Below, one piece after another: positions 4,710-24,575 of a stretch of DNA of 34,551 nt (the stretch's first letter is position 1; each line of letters begins with the position of its first letter). The position numbers and the translations under genes are program-made. The notes under the pieces were generated by a model. It ran no database searches and was not told the DNA's origin. It saw only the letters and a program-made list of their open reading frames with translations. This DNA comes from a virus (lineage: Duplodnaviria; Heunggongvirae; Uroviricota; Caudoviricetes): IMG/VR virus record IMGVR_UViG_2778261031_000007, positions 1 to 34,551 of that record; one strand, written 5' to 3'.

Positions 4710-5099
4710 ATGATTGACGCTCATGACTTCACAAGATGGGTGCGCACACAGGACACCCGTCTGGCTCCCGTTCTTCAGGGATTATTTGATCTCTACATCC
4801 GTGGTCGTGACAACAGAGCACGCACCACAAAACCGGAGAATGCAGACACCCTTTATTTCACAGTAGACGACTGCTACCGCGTGGACTTCACACCACACGG
4901 GCTGGCGTTGCACTGCCTGACACCACACGGAGAATCACTGCTGGCGTATTACGACTCCCCGGCCTCCGTATTTGCGGCAATGCTGGCGCATCGCACTGCT
5001 GGCGGGTGTGCCTCGCTGAGTGAATACACCGCTGAATTTAACCGCCTTTCTGCCCTCTTCTCGCAGGAGTGGCAGCGCGTGACGGGATACCAGCCATGA
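4710..5099 (+). CDS. Hypothetical protein (129 aa)
   Basis: ATG 4710; stop overlaps start of A (ATGA at 5096-5099). Confidence 0.5.
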   Translation: MIDAHDFTRWVRTQDTRLAPVLQGLFDLYIRGRDNRARTTKPENADTLYFTVDDCYRVDFTPHGLALHCLTPHGESLLAYYDSPASVFAAMLAHRTAGGCASLSEYTAEFNRLSALFSQEWQRVTGYQP

Positions 5100-7906
5100 A
5101 TGAGTTTGCATGGAGCTGGAATGAACCACGGCCAGCCATTGATCCGGCCAGATTTACGGAGCACAGGCAGGAAACTGAAACCGACCTGCAACGCGCCATC
5201 CGTTACTACCTTGAGGCAGACAAAAAGGCTCTGGAAGAACAGGAAGCGAAGGAGGAAGCCTTTTTCGCACAATCCACCGTGGGTAAAAAACTCATGGCAT
5301 CCCTTGAGGAAGCCGGACAGCGTGAAAAGCTGGCACAAAGCATCATCAGCAAGCGTCAGGCAACAGAACAAGACCCGGTGGCCCGTGCTTTTGCCACACT
5401 GAAGGTGCTTCCCGTTTATCTGCGTGAACCTCTGAGCCGCCACCTCTCTTTCCTGCGCAAAAAACAGGAAGCCGATCGCCAGAAAGGCAAAAAGAGCTGG
5501 CAGGCTGAACGCTACGCGCGCGGAACCCTGCGCAAAATATTCGAACGTCTGGACCGCACCGATCACCGCTGGCTGACACCGGGTTATCGCTCCCTTGCCG
5601 GACGCGAACGCCTGGACGATTTGCTTTACCTGCCGCAGCTCAACAAACACCAGATACAGACGCTGGCCACCATGACGGCGGCGATGTTCAGCAGCACCTT
5701 CGAAAAACTCTGCGATGGCTTTGGCGCGACTGATGGCGAACTGACCATGGATGTAACGCTGAAGGCGTATCAGATGCTGGCCCGCATGGCGTTACACCTG
5801 CACGCCATGCCTCCACATTATGACGCACTGACAACAGACAAAGACCGGAGGAACGAACCGGACACGGAGCTGCTGCCGGGCGCAATCCTTCGCCTGACCT
5901 GTGCAGAATGGTGGAAACGCAAACTGTGGCTGTTACGTTGCGAGTGGAGAGAAGAACAACTCCGCGCCGCCTGTCTGGTTTCCAGAAAAACATCGCCCTA
6001 TCTGAGCCAGGACGCGTTAAGCGAGTTTCGCGCACAGCGCGAGAAAACACGCGATTTCCTGAAAAGTTTCATGCTGGAAAATGAAGACGGGTTCACGATT
6101 GATCTCGAGACGGTGTATTACGCGGGAGTAAGTAACCCGGTTCACCGTAAGGCAGAAATGATGGCCACCATGAAGGGGCTGGAACTTCTGGCCGAAGCCC
6201 GTGGCGACAAAGCGGTGTTTCTGACTGTCACCTGCCCGTCAAAATACCACGCCACAACAGAGAACGGTCATCCGAATCCCAAATGGAACGGGGCCACCAT
6301 GCGCGACTCCAGCGATTATCTGGTTAACACGTTTTTTGCGGCGGTCCGCAAAAAACTGAACCGCGACGGCCTGCGCTGGTATGGCATCCGCACGGTGGAG
6401 CCTCACCATGACGGCACCGTGCACTGGCATATGATGGTCTTTGCTCATCCGGAAGAAATCGACAGCATCGTGGCCATCACCCGCGATATTGCCATTCAGG
6501 AAGACCGCCACGAGCTGGGCAATGATATTACTCCGCGCTTTAAGGTGGAGTATGTCGACGGCTCCAAAGGCACACCAACCAGCTATATCGCGACCTACAT
6601 CGGAAAAAACCTGGACAGCCGCGCCGTGGATGGCATCGACCCGAAAACGGGCAAGCCACGCGTTGACCACGAAACCGGAAAATCAATGGCCGAGAGTGTG
6701 GAACGCGCCATCGGCTGGGCGCGCCTTCACCGGGTCCGCCAGTTCCAGTTCTTTGGCATCCCCTCCCGTCAGGTATGGCGTGAACTCCGCCGCCTTGCCA
6801 GCCAGATGGCACGCAACCCGGAAGGCCCGCAACGGCTGAAGGATGATGCAATGGATGCGGTACTCGCTGCCGCTGATGCCGGGTGTTTTGCCACCTACAT
6901 TGAGAAACAGGGCGGCGTACTTGTTCCACGCAAAGACTACCTGATTCGCACCGCCTACGACCTCGCAGATGAGCTGAACGATTACGGCGAACAGAGCGTA
7001 CAGATTTACGGGATCTGGTCACCACTCATCGGGGAATCCTCCCGTGTGTGCACGCACCCGGATAACTGGAAGCTGGTAAGACGTAAACCGGAAGCGGAAG
7101 ACAGCACCCGCGAAAATGGTTTTGACCTTCAGGGCGGCCCTGCCGCCCCTTGGACTCGTGGCAATAACTGTCCCCGTGTACAGGAAACGGACAACAACGG
7201 GACAGAACAGCCGGAAGAACGGCCAGCACCGTGGCCGCAGCTCCCTGACGGCGTTGAAGTGAACGAATGGATGCGCTCACTGAAACGGCACGAACGCCGG
7301 GCGCTGATGCGTTCGCTTCGTGACAAACAGGCAAAAAACAGCAGTGATGAAATGCAGAGCTGGACACAGAGCCGCAAACAGCAGCGGCCTTTGCCTGATA
7401 ACCACGAATTACTCGCTAGAGAATGGCGGGAGTCTGCTGAATCTCTCGGCCTGCATATCGGTGAACAACAAATGCAGCACCTGTTACGGGGCGGCAGTCT
7501 GTACGTTGACGGCAGCATCATTGCACCGCAGGGATTTGAAATTGTACGCAAACCGGATACCCGCCCGGACAGCCGAATCACGCAGCTCTGGCAGCGCCTG
7601 AGCCGTAATCACGGTGTAAGCAGCACGGAGATCCGCCATAACCCGGTCGCCAGCTATCTGGCACAGCTGGGGGCATCAGACCCTGAAGCGGCCACACGCC
7701 TGGCATCCACACTTCAGCAGGACCAGAACACCATGAAAACACCCGTTACCGTGCTTTCTGACATGCTGCGCGCCATCCGCGACGCAGAGCACGCACAGAG
7801 AATCAGTGAAACCACTGAACGTGCCCGCCGCAAAGCAGACCTGCTGCGGGGTGGCCTGACCAGTGGAAACAAAAACAGACAGAAACGGGATTCACAAATC
7901 CCGTAA
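5096..7906 (+). CDS. A: Replication initiator A (rolling-circle HUH endonuclease, P2 gpA-like)
   Basis: VEPHHDGTVHWHMMVF HUH motif and N-terminal AWSWNEPR match recalled P2 gpA; start set at ATG 5096 (coupled to upstream gene), alternative GTG at 5069. Confidence 0.9.
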   Translation: MNEFAWSWNEPRPAIDPARFTEHRQETETDLQRAIRYYLEADKKALEEQEAKEEAFFAQSTVGKKLMASLEEAGQREKLAQSIISKRQATEQDPVARAFATLKVLPVYLREPLSRHLSFLRKKQEADRQKGKKSWQAERYARGTLRKIFERLDRTDHRWLTPGYRSLAGRERLDDLLYLPQLNKHQIQTLATMTAAMFSSTFEKLCDGFGATDGELTMDVTLKAYQMLARMALHLHAMPPHYDALTTDKDRRNEPDTELLPGAILRLTCAEWWKRKLWLLRCEWREEQLRAACLVSRKTSPYLSQDALSEFRAQREKTRDFLKSFMLENEDGFTIDLETVYYAGVSNPVHRKAEMMATMKGLELLAEARGDKAVFLTVTCPSKYHATTENGHPNPKWNGATMRDSSDYLVNTFFAAVRKKLNRDGLRWYGIRTVEPHHDGTVHWHMMVFAHPEEIDSIVAITRDIAIQEDRHELGNDITPRFKVEYVDGSKGTPTSYIATYIGKNLDSRAVDGIDPKTGKPRVDHETGKSMAESVERAIGWARLHRVRQFQFFGIPSRQVWRELRRLASQMARNPEGPQRLKDDAMDAVLAAADAGCFATYIEKQGGVLVPRKDYLIRTAYDLADELNDYGEQSVQIYGIWSPLIGESSRVCTHPDNWKLVRRKPEAEDSTRENGFDLQGGPAAPWTRGNNCPRVQETDNNGTEQPEERPAPWPQLPDGVEVNEWMRSLKRHERRALMRSLRDKQAKNSSDEMQSWTQSRKQQRPLPDNHELLAREWRESAESLGLHIGEQQMQHLLRGGSLYVDGSIIAPQGFEIVRKPDTRPDSRITQLWQRLSRNHGVSSTEIRHNPVASYLAQLGASDPEAATRLASTLQQDQNTMKTPVTVLSDMLRAIRDAEHAQRISETTERARRKADLLRGGLTSGNKNRQKRDSQIP

Positions 7907-8011: not shown

Positions 8012-8971
8012 ATGAAAATTTGTATCGACGACGGCTCCACCAACATCAAGCTGGCATGGACTGAGAACGGCGAACGCCGCAACGCCATCAGCCCGAACAG
8101 CTTCAAGTCGGAATGGTCTGCGCCGTTCGGTGGCACGCATCCCGCGAACTACATGCTTGATGGCGTGCGCTATGGCTTTGATCCGGTCAGCGATCGCTTT
8201 GTCCAGACGACTGACACGCAATACCAGTACAGCGATGTGAATGTAATCGCCATTCATCACGCGCTGGTCAAATCAGGCATCACACCACAGGAAGTGGATG
8301 TGGTTGTCACCCTGCCACTGAGCGAGTATTTCGACACAAACGCACAGCCGGACATGGCCAACATCAACCGCAAAAAAGCGAACGTCATGCGCCCAGTGGA
8401 GTACCAGAACGGCGAAGCATTCACTATCCGTAACGTACGGGTTATGCCTGAATCCATTCCGGCTGGCTTTAAAGCACTGGCTGACATGAGTCCGTTTGAA
8501 TCCCTGCTGATTGTGGATTTAGGCGGAACCACGCTGGATGTGGCAAAGGTTCAGGGACAACTGGCAGGTATCAGCCAGGTGTTTTGCGATCCACACGTAG
8601 GCGTTTCTCTGATGGCCGATGCCGTACTGTCGGTGATGGCCACTAACGGTATGCGCACCAGTCACCACATCGCCAATACCATTATCGAACATCGCCATGA
8701 TGAAGCCTGGCTGCGCCAGCACATCCACAATGACGCGCATTACGCCAGCCTGATGGCGGTTATTCGTGAAAAGGAAGAAACACTGAAACAACGCGTGATC
8801 CGCGCGCTGGCGGGTTTTTCGGGTTACGGGCGGGTGATGGTTGTCGGTGGAGGGGCGGAGATTGTGGCACCCGCTATCCGCGAAGCCTGCGGAGTTAATG
8901 CGACTTTCATCGCGGACGGGGTGCCACAGTTTGCTCTGGTTAATGGGCTGTACGCAATGGACAAGGAGTAA
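8012..8971 (+). CDS. parM: ParM/StbA-type actin-like segregation ATPase
   Basis: 319 aa; IDDGSTNIKL, ISPNSFK, QYSDVNV, VHHAL, VMPESIPAG, DLGGTTLD, GGGAE and LVNGLY motifs collinear with recalled R1 ParM. Confidence 0.85.
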   Translation: MKICIDDGSTNIKLAWTENGERRNAISPNSFKSEWSAPFGGTHPANYMLDGVRYGFDPVSDRFVQTTDTQYQYSDVNVIAIHHALVKSGITPQEVDVVVTLPLSEYFDTNAQPDMANINRKKANVMRPVEYQNGEAFTIRNVRVMPESIPAGFKALADMSPFESLLIVDLGGTTLDVAKVQGQLAGISQVFCDPHVGVSLMADAVLSVMATNGMRTSHHIANTIIEHRHDEAWLRQHIHNDAHYASLMAVIREKEETLKQRVIRALAGFSGYGRVMVVGGGAEIVAPAIREACGVNATFIADGVPQFALVNGLYAMDKE

Positions 8972-8975
8972 ACCA

Positions 8976-9287
8976 ATGACGACTCCAACCAGACGGATAA
9001 GTTTCTATCTGAAGCCCGCCGCCGTCAAGAACGAAGGCGAAGCATGCGCCTGGCTGGACAGCCTTACACCAGAAGCCCGCAAAAGCGGCCAACGCGTAGC
9101 TTTTCTGGCCGGGCTGGCACTTCTGAAAATGAATCCAGCAGAGGCTTACCGACTGGCTGCATGGGCTGACGATGAGGCGTTATCAGTGACACAAACCAGG
9201 ACAGAGCGCCCCTTGTCACAGCCAGTACCAACCGCACAGATAACCAGTCAGATGGCTGGGAATATCCGGGCGTTGTTTCCTGAATAA
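8976..9287 (+). CDS. ParR-like small DNA-binding adaptor (call by position and size)
   Basis: 103 aa starting 5 nt after parM stop with AAGGAG RBS; same size class and arrangement as ParR. Confidence 0.45.
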   Translation: MTTPTRRISFYLKPAAVKNEGEACAWLDSLTPEARKSGQRVAFLAGLALLKMNPAEAYRLAAWADDEALSVTQTRTERPLSQPVPTAQITSQMAGNIRALFPE

Positions 9288-9293
9288 CACAAC

Positions 9294-9315
9294 ATCAGGG
9301 CGAGTTCGCCCTGAT
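9294..9315. terminator. Hairpin between convergent genes (ATCAGGGCGA-GTTC-TCGCCCTGAT)
   Basis: Near-perfect palindrome between parR-like stop and the convergent 198-aa gene stop. Confidence 0.45.
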
Positions 9316-9332
9316 GCACAAAGCATGCTAAA

Positions 9333-9929
9333 TCAGAATTTAGTATGCAATTTATCTACCAATCGCTTAGCCTCATTAAGTAGTTTTTGGTATTCCCTGC
9401 TATCGTTTTCCTGATCTTCATACGCTCGCCGAACACGCCATCGAAGAGCAAGGCATTTTAAGTTCCGGTAAAACCTCGGATTACGCTTGCGGCACTCTTC
9501 CATATAAGGTTCAAAATGGACATCAAGAAAGATTAAGGTAGAACCATAAACACGATATAGATACCGCTCATCATACAAACCGTTATTCACGGCATTAGCA
9601 CAACGCTCCCACTCATTAAAAATGAGTTTTAATGCTTTTGCTCCATCCGTTTGAGAATATTCCTCTTTTCCCCAATCAGCGATCGGAAAGTTATGGCGAT
9701 CCTTATGAATACGTAGCACTTCTGACCACGCATCGACTATGTCCTTGTTACGTTTATATGCAGCCTCGAAATCCAACGAATTTTTTTCGCGCGACGTTTT
9801 TCTTTGATTTCGTATGCTAATCACTGCAATAAGCGCACCCGCAGCTCCTGGATAAAACGTAGGGCTGGATTCCCAAATACTGGAAAAAATTTTTCCTATA
9901 TAACTAAGGGCAGAAAGAACTAGATCCAT
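9333..9929 (-). CDS. Orphan membrane-anchored protein (198 aa), unknown function
   Basis: ORF with one N-terminal hydrophobic helix (PGAAGALIAVISI) and a charged soluble domain; visibly lower G+C than flanking phage genes. Confidence 0.7.
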   Translation of the reverse strand: MDLVLSALSYIGKIFSSIWESSPTFYPGAAGALIAVISIRNQRKTSREKNSLDFEAAYKRNKDIVDAWSEVLRIHKDRHNFPIADWGKEEYSQTDGAKALKLIFNEWERCANAVNNGLYDERYLYRVYGSTLIFLDVHFEPYMEECRKRNPRFYRNLKCLALRWRVRRAYEDQENDSREYQKLLNEAKRLVDKLHTKF

Positions 9930-9942
9930 TGTATTTAACCAT

Positions 9943-9965
9943 AAAAAATGGGAGCCAAAGCCCCC
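9943..9965 (-). terminator. Attenuator-like hairpin plus U-tract immediately upstream of the 198-aa gene
   Basis: Minus strand reads GGGGGCTTTGGCTCCC then ATTTTTTA, ending 14 nt before the ATG at 9929. Confidence 0.35.
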
Positions 9966-9997
9966 ATTCTACTGAAACTACTCTAAAAAAACAGGAG

Positions 9998-10042
9998 TTA
10001 AACGTCCCAGTTTTCTTCGCTATAGATGCGGCGTACGGTCAT
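9998..10042 (-). CDS. Candidate 14-codon leader peptide (MTVRRIYSEENWDV)
   Basis: AGAGGAG RBS 7 nt before ATG; lies directly upstream of the hairpin at 9943-9965. Confidence 0.25.
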   Translation of the reverse strand: MTVRRIYSEENWDV

Positions 10043-10379
10043 AGTTAGTCTCCTCTTTTCAATCATTTAAACATCACTAATTTACTTTTAACATGGAGAT
10101 GGTTTTACAGTTGTCAACCACCTCCCCCAAATCTGTTGGGGTAAGCTATCACGCCTACCATACACATACAATGATGAGGCTATATCGTGTAGTCACACCG
10201 ATAAGGATAAGTTCATCTTCTTCGCTGCCTTAATGTGACCAAATATAGCACATTTGAAGCGATATACATCCTGTAATGATACTGCACAATAGTGCACAAA
10301 TTTGCACAATTTTTTTGAACGACTTTTTGCCCTTCCGGCCCGCGTGGCGGCTGGATCCGTCAGGGATCCGTGCGTGCAC

Positions 10380-10403
10380 AAAAAAACGCGCTTTTTCTGC
10401 GCG
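10380..10403 (-). terminator. Candidate minus-strand intrinsic terminator (CGCGC stem, then U7 on minus strand)
   Basis: Plus strand AAAAAAA-CGCGC-TTTTTCT-GCGCG. Confidence 0.3.
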
Positions 10404-10405
10404 CA

Positions 10406-10424
10406 GGTGACGGGGGAACAGCCC
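10406..10424. other. Candidate cos-like element (GGTGACGGGGGAACAGCCC)
   Basis: About 12 of 18 positions match the recalled P2/186 cohesive end GGCGAGGCGGGGAAAGCA; lies on the expected side of the portal gene. Confidence 0.2.
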
Positions 10425-10808
10425 GCGTTTCAGGGGGTAAATAGCATTCCCTGAACGATGTCGCAGCGACACAACAGAATGGCTGTATCGCTCACGCTGA
10501 GCCTGAAAAAGACGTAAGGTGTTCTGATTTGATGGGATGAAAGGTAAGGCCGTCAAAATCGCACTGAGGCGGCGAGAACATGCAGTCAGCGCGGCGGGAT
10601 TGTGTAAGAGTCTGGCCGTCGATGATAGCGATAAGTCGGAAGACGTCGTGAAATTATCTGATTGATACAGGAGCTGGAGAGTCGGGGCATAAATTTTTTA
10701 TGCCCCGGCGAAGCAGCAGACAAGCGAAGCGCGTCAGTGATGCGGCACCTTGCCGACCACACTTCATAAGTGCAAAATACGAGCAAAGAAATCAATGGAG
10801 GCTGTTCT

Positions 10809-11333
10809 ATGGTCATTAATTACAAGCAGTTACGAGAAAAACGAGATCAGGTAAAGGAGAGTTTTCGCCGCAATGAAGACCTGACCCCGCTTGTACGCAT
10901 TGCCCAGGGAATTGTTGATGCTTATGAAATCTCTCTGGAGCTGCCATCACAGACATGGACGGATAGCGACGGTAATCGCCAGCATTACGTTTCATGCGGA
11001 CTGGAAACGGCTGAAGGGTTTCGCAGAATGCCTTTATCTCAGATTCCTGCCGCTACCCCCAAAGCAAGGGGCGGCAATGATGAGCGAAAACTGATTTTCA
11101 GCATTGAGACAGTGGTTGACGACACACCTGGCGAAGTCGCCTTCGTGCATACTCCTCTTTCGATCGCAATGTATAACGATGAAATACAGGTTCGCGTTAA
11201 TAATAATATCGTGCCACTTAAAGAAGGTAATTCACCATACACCACCGTTTGTGAAGCCATTCAATATTACGTTCTCTCTGAAATTGATAATCTCAAGCCT
11301 GACGGCACCCAGAAAATGGTTCAACTCTGGTAA
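10809..11333 (+). CDS. Orphan protein (174 aa), unknown function
   Basis: GGAGG RBS at 10797-10801 with ATG at 10809 (track ORF starts at upstream GTG 10770); followed by a strong terminator. Confidence 0.65.
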   Translation: MVINYKQLREKRDQVKESFRRNEDLTPLVRIAQGIVDAYEISLELPSQTWTDSDGNRQHYVSCGLETAEGFRRMPLSQIPAATPKARGGNDERKLIFSIETVVDDTPGEVAFVHTPLSIAMYNDEIQVRVNNNIVPLKEGNSPYTTVCEAIQYYVLSEIDNLKPDGTQKMVQLW

Positions 11334-22556: not shown

Positions 22557-24575
22557 ATGAGTACCACAACACGAAAATTTAAAACCGTTATCACCGATAC
22601 GGGTGCAAAAAAATTAGCGCAGGCAGCCGCGCCAGATGGTAAGCCTGTCCGCCTGACTCATATGGCCGTGGGCGACGGTGGCGGTACATTGCCCACACCT
22701 GACAGTAAGCAGACCCGTCTGGTGCATGAGGTGTGGCGACATACTGTTAATCGCGTCATCCTGGACGCAACACATCAGAACCGCATTATTGCAGAGCTGG
22801 TTATTCCTCCTGAAACGGGCGGATTCTGGATCCGGGAAATTGGTGTATTTGATGAGCACGGCGATTTAATCGCGGTGGGCAATACTGCCGAAAGTTACAA
22901 GCCAGCCGTTGCCGAAGGGTCCGGTCGTGCACAAACATTTCGCACCATTCTGACCGTATCCAGCACAGCCACCGTGGCGCTTACCGTGGATAACACCATG
23001 GTGATGGCCACAGTGGATTACGTGGATGACAAACTGAAAGAGCATGAACAGTCACGACGTCACCCGGACGCCTCGCTGACCGCAAAAGGCTTTGTTCAAC
23101 TCAGTAGCGCCACCAACAGCACGTCTGAAACGCAGGCTGCAACGCCGAAAGCAGTAAAGGCCGCGTATGACCTTGCTAACGCAAAATATACCGCTCAGGA
23201 CGCCACGACGGCACAAAAAGGGATAGTCCAGCTCAGTAGTGCCACCAACAGCACGTCTGAAACACTGGCCGCGACATCGAAAGCGGTTAAGGCGGTAATG
23301 GATGAAACGAACAAGAAAGCGCCCTTAAACAGTCCTGCGCTGACCGGAACGCCAACAACGCCAACTGCGCGACAGGGAACGAATAATACCCAAATCGCAA
23401 GCACGGCTTTCGTTATGGCTGCGATTGCCGCCCTTGTAGATTCGTCACCTGACGCACTGAATACGCTGAACGAGTTAGCGGCGGCGCTGGGAAACGACCC
23501 GAATTTTGCGACCACCATGACTAACGCGCTTGCGGGTAAGCAACCGAAAGATGCCACCCTGACGGCGCTGGCCGGGCTTGCTACTGCGGCAGACAGGTTT
23601 CCGTATTTTACGGGGAATGATGTCGCCAGCCTGGCAACCCTGACAAAAGTCGGGCGGGATATTCTTGCGAAATCGACCGTTGCTGCCGTTATCGAATACC
23701 TCGGTTTACAGGAAACGGTAAACAGGGCTGGTAACGCCGTGCAAAAAAATGGCGATACCTTGTCCGGTGGGCTTACTTTTGAAAATGACTCAATCCTTGC
23801 CTGGATTCGAAATACTGACTGGGCGAAGATTGGATTTAAAAATGATGCTGATGGTGACACTGATTCATACATGTGGTTTGAAACAGGCGACAACGGCAAT
23901 GAATATTTCAAATGGAGAAGCCGCCAGAGCACCACAACAAAAGACCTGATGACGCTGAAATGGGATGCACTAAATATTCTGGTAAATGCCGTCATTAATG
24001 GCAGTCTTGGAGTTGGTACGACGAATGCGTTAGGTGGTAGCTCTATTGTTCTTGGTGATAATGACACCGGATTCAAACAGAATGGTGATGGTATTCTGGA
24101 TGTTTACGCTAATAGTCAGCGAGTATTCCGCTTTCAGAATGGAGTTGCTATTGCTTTTAAAAACATTCAGGCAGGTGATAGTAAAAAGTTCTCGTTATCC
24201 AGCTCCAACACCTCCACAAAGAATGCAACGTTTAATTTATGGGGTGTTTCAACCCGTCCAGTAGTTGCAGAGTTAGGCGATGAGGCAGGATGGCATTTCT
24301 ATAGCCAGCGAAATACAGATAACTCGGTAATATTTTCTGTTAACGGTCAGATACAGCCCAGCAACTGGGGGAATTTTGATTCACGCTATGTAAAAGATGT
24401 TCGCCTGGGTACGCGTGTTGTTCAATTGATGGCGCGTGGTGGTCGTTATGAAAAAGCCGGACACGCAATTACCGGATTAAGAATCATTGGTGAAGTAGAT
24501 GGCGATGATGAAGCCATCTTCAGACCAATACAAAAATACATCAATGGCACATGGTATAACGTCGCACAGGTGTAA
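22557..24575 (+). CDS. H: Tail fibre protein H (constant N-terminus, invertible C-terminal domain, current orientation)
   Basis: 672 aa; SSATNSTSET..A-T-(P/S)KAVKA fibre repeats; crossover site at 23689-23714 lies in frame inside the gene. Confidence 0.9.
   Translation: MSTTTRKFKTVITDTGAKKLAQAAAPDGKPVRLTHMAVGDGGGTLPTPDSKQTRLVHEVWRHTVNRVILDATHQNRIIAELVIPPETGGFWIREIGVFDEHGDLIAVGNTAESYKPAVAEGSGRAQTFRTILTVSSTATVALTVDNTMVMATVDYVDDKLKEHEQSRRHPDASLTAKGFVQLSSATNSTSETQAATPKAVKAAYDLANAKYTAQDATTAQKGIVQLSSATNSTSETLAATSKAVKAVMDETNKKAPLNSPALTGTPTTPTARQGTNNTQIASTAFVMAAIAALVDSSPDALNTLNELAAALGNDPNFATTMTNALAGKQPKDATLTALAGLATAADRFPYFTGNDVASLATLTKVGRDILAKSTVAAVIEYLGLQETVNRAGNAVQKNGDTLSGGLTFENDSILAWIRNTDWAKIGFKNDADGDTDSYMWFETGDNGNEYFKWRSRQSTTTKDLMTLKWDALNILVNAVINGSLGVGTTNALGGSSIVLGDNDTGFKQNGDGILDVYANSQRVFRFQNGVAIAFKNIQAGDSKKFSLSSSNTSTKNATFNLWGVSTRPVVAELGDEAGWHFYSQRNTDNSVIFSVNGQIQPSNWGNFDSRYVKDVRLGTRVVQLMARGGRYEKAGHAITGLRIIGEVDGDDEAIFRPIQKYINGTWYNVAQV
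23689..23714. repeat. gix/hix-like 26-bp invertase crossover site (left)
   Basis: TTATCGAATACCTCGGTTTACAGGAA; imperfect dyad; inverted copy at 26367-26392. Confidence 0.8.

Follow-up and report, generated by a model that had tools for sequence, protein, structure and literature searches.

A conserved micro-ORF and an intrinsic terminator precede DUF4760 genes in a P2-like prophage hotspot and in other mobile elements

We analysed a 34,551-nucleotide (nt) stretch of viral DNA (IMG/VR record IMGVR_UViG_2778261031_000007; hereafter the window), concentrating on a gene of low G+C content on its minus strand which encodes a protein of the Pfam family DUF4760. We found that this gene belongs to a compact mobile module with a conserved anatomy: a conserved putative promoter, a 5' untranslated region (UTR) of ~94 nt, a well-initiated short open reading frame (micro-ORF), an intrinsic terminator, DUF4760 itself without a Shine-Dalgarno (SD) sequence and a second terminator, which together make up a self-contained moron. 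Selection acts on the micropeptide at the amino-acid level, and the same micropeptide gene is found without DUF4760 in lytic phages. A sequence-only reading of the window had described the gene as an orphan of an unrecognised family and as single-gene cargo. Neither description held, as the protein matches Pfam DUF4760 with 87.5 bits, the family comprises at least 566 clusters at 50% identity in an exhaustive profile search, and the micro-ORF and terminator lie directly upstream. The conserved micro-ORF, the terminator and the free-standing phage copies were found in neither Rfam, annotations nor the searchable literature.

Anatomy of the module and its conservation across DUF4760 loci

Leader elements were read within 380 nt upstream of the DUF4760 start codon (Table 1). 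The putative promoter scores below the threshold of a consensus scanner; in an alignment of 12 leaders (A4), however, TTGT and the TG-n-TA-nnn-T positions do not vary. The block with which the 5' UTR begins is conserved across leader classes, and folding of the 5' UTR gave a 5' stem-loop (GGAGGUGGUU...AACCAUCUCC). In the micro-ORF motif, Φ stands for a hydrophobic residue. The terminator begins 27 nt past the micro-ORF stop, and the DUF4760 ATG follows 15 nt after its U-run with no recognisable SD. An additional in-frame ATG at 10066 would give a 22-codon micro-ORF (MIEKRRLTMTV..; 9998-10066, minus strand) without a good SD; homologous micro-ORFs favour the ATG at 10042.

Table 1. Features of the cargo and its leader, in window coordinates
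Feature	Coordinates	Strand	Basis
AT-rich variable cargo in the gpA/parMR-cos-gpQ hotspot	9290..10282		flank-versus-cargo comparison, G+C profile
G+C-rich hairpin between convergent parR and DUF4760	9292..9317		11 pairs, 7 of them G-C
DUF4760-family coding sequence (CDS), 198 amino acids (aa), ATG start	9333..9929	-	ORF list, Pfam PF15956, AlphaFold2 (AF2) model, third-position differences
Intrinsic terminator, 11-bp stem GAAUGGGGGCU/GGCUCCCAUU and U-run	9939..9970	-	terminator scan, RNAalifold, minimum free energy (MFE) folds
Micro-ORF, 14 codons and stop, MTVRRIYSEENWDV; motif EE[N/D]W[G/D]Φ	9998..10042	-	sequence, homologous micro-ORFs
Shine-Dalgarno GAGGAG, 7 nt upstream of the micro-ORF ATG	10050..10055	-	sequence
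5' UTR of ~94 nt from the putative transcription start; starts with conserved block CCAACAGATTT	10043..10136	-	alignment, fold
Putative sigma-70 promoter: -35 TTGTAT 10171-10166, 17-nt spacer, extended -10 TG 10151-10150, -10 TAGCTT 10148-10143	10143..10171	-	comparison among leaders only

The homologous upstream region was taken from each DUF4760 locus that could be fetched; since the loci share ancestry, the counts given here are of non-independent events. In the first 37 loci, the same arrangement was present wherever there was sufficient upstream sequence. We then counted 33 distinct loci from enterobacteria, Vibrio, Pseudomonas, Alteromonadales and a low-GC plasmid, whose DUF4760 proteins are 21-100% identical. 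A micro-ORF of 9-21 codons with SD and motif was found in 31 of these 33, nearly always with an SD-like GAGG or GGAG before the ATG. In 30/31 leaders the micro-ORF is succeeded by a strong intrinsic terminator, and DUF4760 starts 4-44 nt beyond the hairpin, mostly without an SD. Micro-ORF and terminator are conserved down to 21-24% protein identity, including Vibrio phage E8498, Pseudomonas phage D14E, Colwellia and Pseudoalteromonas. At one locus (L040) the micro-ORF is kept and the terminator is absent, with the micro-ORF stop codon TAG abutting the DUF4760 ATG, so that the peptide is the more conserved element. No tandem repeats were found in the leader. Rfam holds no family for it (best match 20 bits, against a gathering score of 58.7 bits), and in E. 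coli it was never found with other cargo, being confined to the same 15 genomes that carry this DUF4760 allele.

The encoded peptides include MKNRFNEENWDV and MTKFVKIFNEENWGF (Klebsiella), MKKIYREEDWGVFISK (E. coli), MKTFREEDWGLS (Siccibacter), MKQFKKILNEELWD (Colwellia), MLISKHNPEEEKWT (Pseudoalteromonas), MMKKTYQEEDWGFDIKS (Vibrio phage E8498), ..REEYEGI (a Pseudomonas phage) and MKKVFDEFDGF (phage Shae_phiSM), together with MYLEEDWEF on a Rep_1 plasmid contig of 33% GC, MNVRMFSASEEDLGV on a contig of 60% GC and MREHDFGLD on one of 59% GC. Synonymous codons vary within the motif: the second Glu is GAA in 12 cases and GAG in 18, Asp is GAT in 8 and GAC in 6, and Gly is GGT in 13 and GGC in 8. 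Residues are kept while codons vary, so that selection acts not on RNA sequence alone but on the peptide made from it or on which codons are read. Together with the SD and the ATG, this codon pattern indicates that the micro-ORF is translated. The codon after EE is NAY in 28 of 31 leaders (Asn 12, Asp 14, Tyr 2), a class read by queuosine-modified tRNAs; this bias could reflect an ordinary N/D exchange or hint at sensing at the level of tRNAs. Since DGF, WGF or WEF is the ending of some peptides, mimicry of the SSB C-terminal tail or of EEVD-like ends was considered. It was dropped because the C-termini vary (..WDV, ..WGVFISK, ..WGLS, ..WD).

The window was also compared with a 92%-identical allele of the cargo in E. 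coli RM8082 (L046). Of the 65 differences within the CDS, 48 are at third codon positions, as expected of a coding gene under purifying selection, and the 198-aa ORF called in the sequence-only reading is therefore real. Promoter and 5' UTR together (10043-10175) differ at 1 of 133 positions, against 89% identity and 24% third-position divergence in the CDS. For the 5' UTR by itself the count is 1/94, compared with 48/199 for CDS third positions (Fisher p=2e-8). The leader is thus either strongly constrained or has a separate history, as in a recombinant allele. The RM8082 micro-ORF carries two non-synonymous changes, both in the variable N-terminal part (MTVRCTYSEENWDV), and its motif is unchanged.

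Free-standing micro-ORFs in lytic phages

We scanned 2.9 million viral contigs for the codon pattern N-E-E-N-W-[G/D] to ask whether the leader is specific to DUF4760. The pattern was matched 62 times; complete micro-ORFs accounted for 24 of the matches, and 19 of these 24 had an SD-like sequence. The codon-permuted control N-E-N-E-W-[G/D] gave 45 matches, none in a micro-ORF. No DUF4760 was present within 1.1 kb downstream of 17 of the 24 micro-ORFs. These free-standing ORFs have 8-12 codons and encode MNEENWGV, MNEENWDV, MFNEENWDV, MLNEENWGV, MVNEENWGVY and MTIRGNEENWGF.

The named carriers are lytic phages of three unrelated families, and the micro-ORF is unannotated in all of them. In Pectobacterium phages PhiM1, PP90, Khlen and Slant (Autographiviridae, T7-like) it lies upstream of the RNA polymerase gene, and its ATG overlaps the stop codon of PhiM1_29. 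A free-standing copy is also present in Pectobacterium phage PM2 (T4-like), and the one in Providencia phage PSTCR5 (T5-like) overlaps phoH at its end and lies upstream of nrdA. Several of the phage micro-ORFs overlap the stop codon of the preceding gene (ATGA), as real small phage genes do; several lie 20-143 nt upstream of another gene. A further type (L098, L100 and L121) encodes MFNEENWDV, followed by its own terminator 4 nt after the stop and then by a TTGACA/TATAAT promoter, so that this micro-ORF cannot be a leader for the next gene. The leader of the Providencia/Serratia DUF4760 clade appears to end in ..EENWGV, the same ending as the Providencia phage peptide (from L021, P0025/P0032).

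Some other details of these phage loci were recorded. The three contigs of the MFNEENWDV type are viral, 118-141 kb long, and none matches deposited phages; in L098 the micro-ORF follows a 416-aa ORF whose C-terminus (..AEWDFEDVPF) resembles an SSB-type acidic tail. On another contig (L119:2999-3110), MNEENWDV and MNEENWGV are encoded 92 nt apart with separate SDs. We considered whether the PhiM1 micro-ORF is the ToxIN-escape gene M1-23, and rejected this identity because the genomic position differs (PMC5377504).

Proposed mechanism and rival explanations

Our preferred reading, which we hold tentatively, is that the peptide, abundant and labile, acts in trans as an antidote to, or a regulator of, a DUF4760 effector that is scarce, anchored in the membrane and probably toxic. 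As the terminator would pass only a small fraction of transcripts on to DUF4760, the peptide would be produced in large excess. On read-through transcripts the hairpin would abut the SD-less DUF4760 start and keep the effector scarce, and the peptide would restrain the effector, whose helical domain is predicted to be cytoplasmic. A peptide of 9-21 residues should be short-lived, so that the effector would be released once an infecting phage shuts down the expression of host genes. The outcome would be an aborted infection or, in cells that are not infected, stabilisation of the element. The NEENW[G/D]V genes carried by T7-, T4- and T5-like phages would be antidote mimics, i.e. counter-defence. 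A defence role of DUF4760 is plausible from its genomic setting, and since lytic phages carry the peptide gene on its own, the two may form an undescribed peptide-controlled defence/counter-defence pair. The larger proposal is somewhat doubtful in our view; it is that of a two-component immune or addiction system with a micropeptide antidote of 8-21 residues (core NEENW[G/D]V), captured by lytic phages as counter-defence, in which DUF4760 is possibly also the first prokaryotic or viral relative of the EDS1-family EP domain.

Several known systems are laid out in a comparable way. ToxIN and the AbiF/RCd22 system of a C. difficile prophage share the order of antidote, intrinsic terminator and toxic-protein gene in one transcription unit; there the terminator sets a large antidote excess, and the elements are mobile (prophage or plasmid), like the DUF4760 module. 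This antitoxin RNA-terminator-toxin layout has been described for a prophage AbiF system (bioRxiv 10.1101/2025.04.15.648962), and another abortive-infection gene, abiD1, is tightly repressed (PMC2661086). The upstream element of ToxIN and AbiF/RCd22 is, however, a structured or repeated RNA, whereas that of the DUF4760 module is predicted to be translated, conserved in amino-acid sequence and free of tandem repeats. DUF4760 is a membrane-anchored helical protein and not an endoribonuclease, and its toxicity and defence role are conjectured here. In the microcin C operon, reportedly described by Zukher et al. 2014, mccA (7 codons) is followed by a terminator and mccB, and the peptide message is said to be in large excess. 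The downstream genes of that operon modify and export the peptide, while DUF4760 has no recognisable enzyme or transporter fold. As to the phage copies, T4 Dmd (acting against RnlA/LsoA), the pseudo-ToxI of phage TE and TifA are lytic-phage products that replace or mimic a host antidote, to which the NEENW[G/D]V micro-ORFs are comparable, the role of the latter being suggested by the shared sequence only. Escape from ToxIN through such antidote mimics (pseudo-ToxI) is documented (PMC5377504), and small lytic-phage products that stand in for a host antidote in this way have been described (PMC10853763; PMC5377504).

A number of observations weigh against a trans-acting antidote. We know of no precedent for a specific antidote peptide as short as 8 residues, and ORFs of 8 codons just as typically encode leader peptides that stall ribosomes. 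Two distant DUF4760 genes in phage tail-gene clusters (L042 and L044) have no micro-ORF. In one E. coli lineage IS1 disrupts DUF4760 and leaves the leader intact, although loss would be harmless under either a trans-acting or a cis-acting model. The 5' UTR is far better conserved than the synonymous sites of the CDS, which hints at an RNA-level function that our model does not need. As regards the defence role, neither the DUF4760 protein nor its neighbours matched any family of PADLOC-DB 2.0 (0 at E up to 1), and outside prophages there is one weak case of a defence candidate as neighbour (PDC-M04A in Colwellia). In the literature searched, 'DUF4760' turned up in a single paper, as a table entry, with no functional study found.

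The chief competing explanation is that the micro-ORF acts in cis as a leader that senses ribosomes, either by arrest of the nascent chain at EE[N/D]W or by tRNA sensitivity, with translation status setting termination or the use of the downstream start. DUF4760 would then be induced only when translation is perturbed, for example during phage takeover, and the phage copies would be the same sensor placed before other genes. The succession of SD, short ORF, 14-35 nt spacer, terminator and gene is that of a classical attenuator. Leader-peptide attenuators and arrest peptides (trpL, tnaC, erm leaders, mgtL, toiL) share the very short ORF with strong SD, the terminator and the regulated gene, as well as amino-acid conservation of the last residues; stalling leaders of 8 codons are known (toiL, erm leaders). 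The NAY codon after EE, the narrow range of the stop-to-hairpin distance despite very divergent spacers (even where the stop comes 6 codons past the motif) and the phage copies that closely precede another gene all fit such a leader. We know of no described arrest sequence that EE[N/D]W resembles.

To examine this explanation at the RNA level, each leader was folded in three ways: unconstrained, with the motif masked by a ribosome footprint, and with the stop codon occupied by a ribosome. The terminator was kept in every MFE fold, free or ribosome-masked. It was also the sole consensus structure in RNAalifold, with compensatory changes at 5 of 12 pairs, indicating that it is real. When duplex energies were compared with those of shuffled sequences, the spacer and the terminator's 5' arm gave a mean z of ~0 for pairing, while the end of the micro-ORF was complementary to the 3' arm beyond shuffles, modestly (mean z -1.4). 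A helix between the EE-N codons and the spacer forms in some lineages, one change in it being apparently compensatory (GAAGAAAAC/GUUUUUUU vs GAAGAGAAC/GUUCUCUU), but it is absent in many loci. The 14-35 nt between the stop codon and the hairpin are too many for a terminating ribosome to interfere with it directly. A classical trp-type attenuator was judged unlikely, as MFE folds, duplex energies and RNAalifold detected no antiterminator; a kinetic attenuator or an arrest peptide may still operate, but we found nothing in its favour beyond the layout. Further points against a cis-acting leader are the micro-ORF of L040, which is kept without a terminator, the phage copies with their own terminator and a fresh promoter, and the other phage copies that overlap the upstream gene's stop codon like ordinary small genes; the motif also makes up a free-standing terminal gene in lytic phages. 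On balance we consider a cis-acting leader rather unlikely.

Two other explanations were weighed. The module may serve no defence at all, DUF4760 being part of a selfish addiction module (toxin-antidote) that merely stabilises a prophage, plasmid or islet, or a lysogenic-conversion or phage-physiology factor unrelated to other phages. Its compact, self-contained form on plasmids, prophages and a single-gene islet between housekeeping genes fits this, as does its place next to parMR here and in many E. coli P2-like prophages. We nevertheless find it improbable, as DUF4760 mostly occurs without parMR, phages with parMR bear other cargo at the site, and a lytic phage would gain nothing from the peptide gene if the module had no effect on it. 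Superinfection exclusion, which we judge quite improbable, would make DUF4760 a harmless inner-membrane protein, present at a low constitutive level in the lysogen and blocking DNA entry or an early step, with the leader only setting the low level. Small N-terminally anchored proteins at prophage accessory sites, including directly 3' of cI, are reminiscent of rex and sie genes, and the P2 hotspot also holds old and tin. Yet the bulk of the DUF4760 protein is cytoplasmic by the positive-inside rule, a low level needs no peptide motif that is kept in elements as far apart as Pseudomonas phages and a low-GC plasmid, and the free-standing copies in lytic phages are left unexplained. There is also no similarity to the annotated Sie families (SieA/B, Sie2009, Imm, HK97 gp15), phrog_2284 being the only match.

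If the peptide acts in trans, as we favour, one of the smallest known gene products would serve as the antidote of a toxin-antidote or abortive-infection system, and the 8-codon gene shared by three unrelated families of lytic phages would be the signature of an arms race. If the effect is in cis, EE[N/D]W would define a ribosome-sensing leader that is new and widely distributed. Conserved micro-ORFs that had escaped annotation are flagged in the well-studied phages PhiM1, PM2 and PSTCR5, and a testable role is assigned to a DUF that frequently occupies the P2 defence hotspot.

The DUF4760 protein and its hotspot setting

The protein is deposited in RefSeq as WP_000366644.1 ('DUF4760 domain-containing protein'). 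Its match to PF15956 (E=1.2e-24, cut-off 25 bits) aligns residues 29-164 with profile positions 5-141 of 141, and 34/34 aligned relatives match the same family. Members listed are 78-425 aa long, with no domain fusions among them. In a 67-sequence alignment E108 is the sole invariant residue; K49, N105, W164 and A35 are at least 90% conserved. NCBIfam gave no match, and the sole PHROG match was phrog_2284 ('unknown function'), with no annotated family. The N-terminal transmembrane helix proposed earlier is well supported in the family, where 54 of 67 diverse members reach the usual Kyte-Doolittle 19-residue threshold of 1.6; in this allele the hydrophobic segment (FYPGAAGALIAVISI, residues 25-39) is weak, with a maximum of 1.22. 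Net charge across the 67 members averages +2.6 in the 12 residues after the anchor and -0.3 before it. The basic stretch after the anchor points to an N-out, C-in orientation, with the helical domain predicted to be cytoplasmic. This soluble part is highly charged, as the sequence-only reading had it (37% of residues 41-198). An IS1B copy was seen in the 5' part of the CDS in E. coli EC556 (L045) and also in EC571 and EC581, three related pig isolates; it cuts DUF4760 to 163 aa and the leader is still 100% identical, suggesting that loss of DUF4760 is tolerated.

The homology and structure check called for in the sequence-only reading returned the DUF4760 family and an all-helical AF2 model (34-sequence alignment, nine helices, pLDDT 89, pTM 0.73), in which the anchor helix runs on into the cytoplasmic bundle. 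Apart from the PADLOC search, it was also negative in the PDB, where neither sequence search nor Foldseek found a match to DUF4760. The one unnamed viral protein matched in BFVD is probably a distant member of the family. We also asked whether the EP domain of plant EDS1/PAD4/SAG101 has a prokaryotic relative in the cytoplasmic domain of DUF4760, a domain that would likewise bind a small nucleotide-derived immune signal; this idea is compatible with the other readings, and we regard it as very unlikely. An alignment of 42 EP sequences, seeded with AtEDS1 345-623 and verified against PDB 7xdd_B, was compared by hhalign and gave a probability of 0.6-0.7%, and no DUF4760 member matches Pfam EDS1_EP (PF18117), so there is no similarity at the sequence or profile level. 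EP domains moreover lie C-terminal to a lipase-like domain and act as heterodimers, whereas DUF4760 is a small, membrane-anchored, stand-alone protein. The likeness was treated as a fold resemblance of uncertain meaning. On the best hhalign path, whose score is insignificant, DFEAAYKR and EPYM..NPRFY of DUF4760 are paired in order with DFKANVKR and GPYM..RPTRY of EDS1, the latter motif including the functionally critical R493.

By gene order and protein families the window is a P2-like prophage of the P88/Xuanwuvirus type. Integrase, repressor and early genes are followed by the replication endonuclease (5069-7906), ParM (8012-8971) and ParR (stop at 9287), and rightward of ParR come the DUF4760 ORF, ~840 nt of non-coding DNA, an ORF at 10770-11333 and then the portal and terminase genes. 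Judged from this order (repA, parM, parR, cargo, a conserved non-coding block, the phrog_5091 ORF, portal, terminase), the cargo occupies the gpA-gpQ cos-proximal hotspot of P88/P2-like prophages. The region from gpA to gpQ in P2-like phages was defined as a hotspot of anti-phage systems by Rousset et al. 2022 (PMC9122126). In its Table S5, WP_000366644 is entered under 'Plasmid_stab_B + DUF4760 + StbA' and DUF4760 is mentioned at least 197 times, while the table of tested systems does not contain it (PMC9122126). The family and its presence in the hotspot are thus already on record. Other cargo of this hotspot (old, tin, PARIS-type) sits at the same site between the replication gene, here with parMR, and the portal gene, and likewise differs in content between close relatives; DUF4760 differs in having no homology to old, tin or any PADLOC family, and is catalogued outside the tested set (PMC9122126). 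A functional link between DUF4760 and parMR was rejected, because DUF4760 is mostly found without parMR.

The observation made in the sequence-only reading was confirmed and its interpretation partly supported. DUF4760 and parR are convergent, the 45-nt gap between them holding the hairpin at 9292-9317, which is probably a bidirectional terminator. As had also been noted, the G+C content is lower than that of the surrounding phage genes: 41.0% in the ORF (35% at third codon positions) and 40.8% in the whole cargo, against 52.9% in the window. The lowest 597-nt stretch of the window (mean 52.9, standard deviation 5.2) falls here, with 39.0% at ~9500. Separate horizontal acquisition was borne out by comparison with other P88-like phages (P88, Shae_phiSM, Chuche, 520873 and others), which have only the flanks in common with the window (the parR side and the block from ~10283) and in which the cargo is replaced, and by the occurrence of the same module at moron sites of unrelated prophages, on a plasmid-like contig and as a chromosomal islet. 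The cargo was found in 15 of 5426 complete E. coli genomes, in an identical context each time, and Citrobacter phage Shae_phiSM has a DUF4760 gene with 24% identity at the very same position. Elsewhere, relatives lie between the Q antiterminator and holin genes of a Klebsiella lambdoid prophage, at the ends of Klebsiella and E. coli prophages past the tail-fibre genes, immediately 3' of cI in Pseudomonas phage D14E, in the regulatory region of Vibrio phage E8498 and on the Rep_1 plasmid-like contig of 33% GC. In Pseudoalteromonas the gene is a one-gene chromosomal islet flanked by housekeeping genes, and in Colwellia it adjoins the PADLOC candidate PDC-M04A and a transposase.

Some further features were seen around the cargo. 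Three direct copies of a 10-nt unit containing TGCACAA lie at 10279-10310, exactly at the junction of cargo and conserved flank, and the same set of three is also present in Shae_phiSM (L002, ~2650-2690); the repeats may be a protein-binding site near cos or a recombination boundary of the hotspot. The adjoining ~480-nt non-coding block (10290-10770) is kept in other P88-like phages. It has a terminator-like hairpin at 10386-10404 (minus strand) and probably contains cos, since some linear phage records begin inside it. Between this presumed cos region and the portal gene, the plus-strand ORF at 10770-11333 encodes a 187-aa protein of phrog_5091 (E=8e-66), which is kept among P88-like phages and has no match in Pfam or PADLOC. 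Two more stretches of low G+C (~40% each) were noted in the window. One, at 2350-2400, is among small early genes (phrog_3800 and phrog_2549), and the other, at 24100-24300, falls in the C-terminal part of the tail-fibre gene 22557-24575 and is typical of host-range mosaicism.

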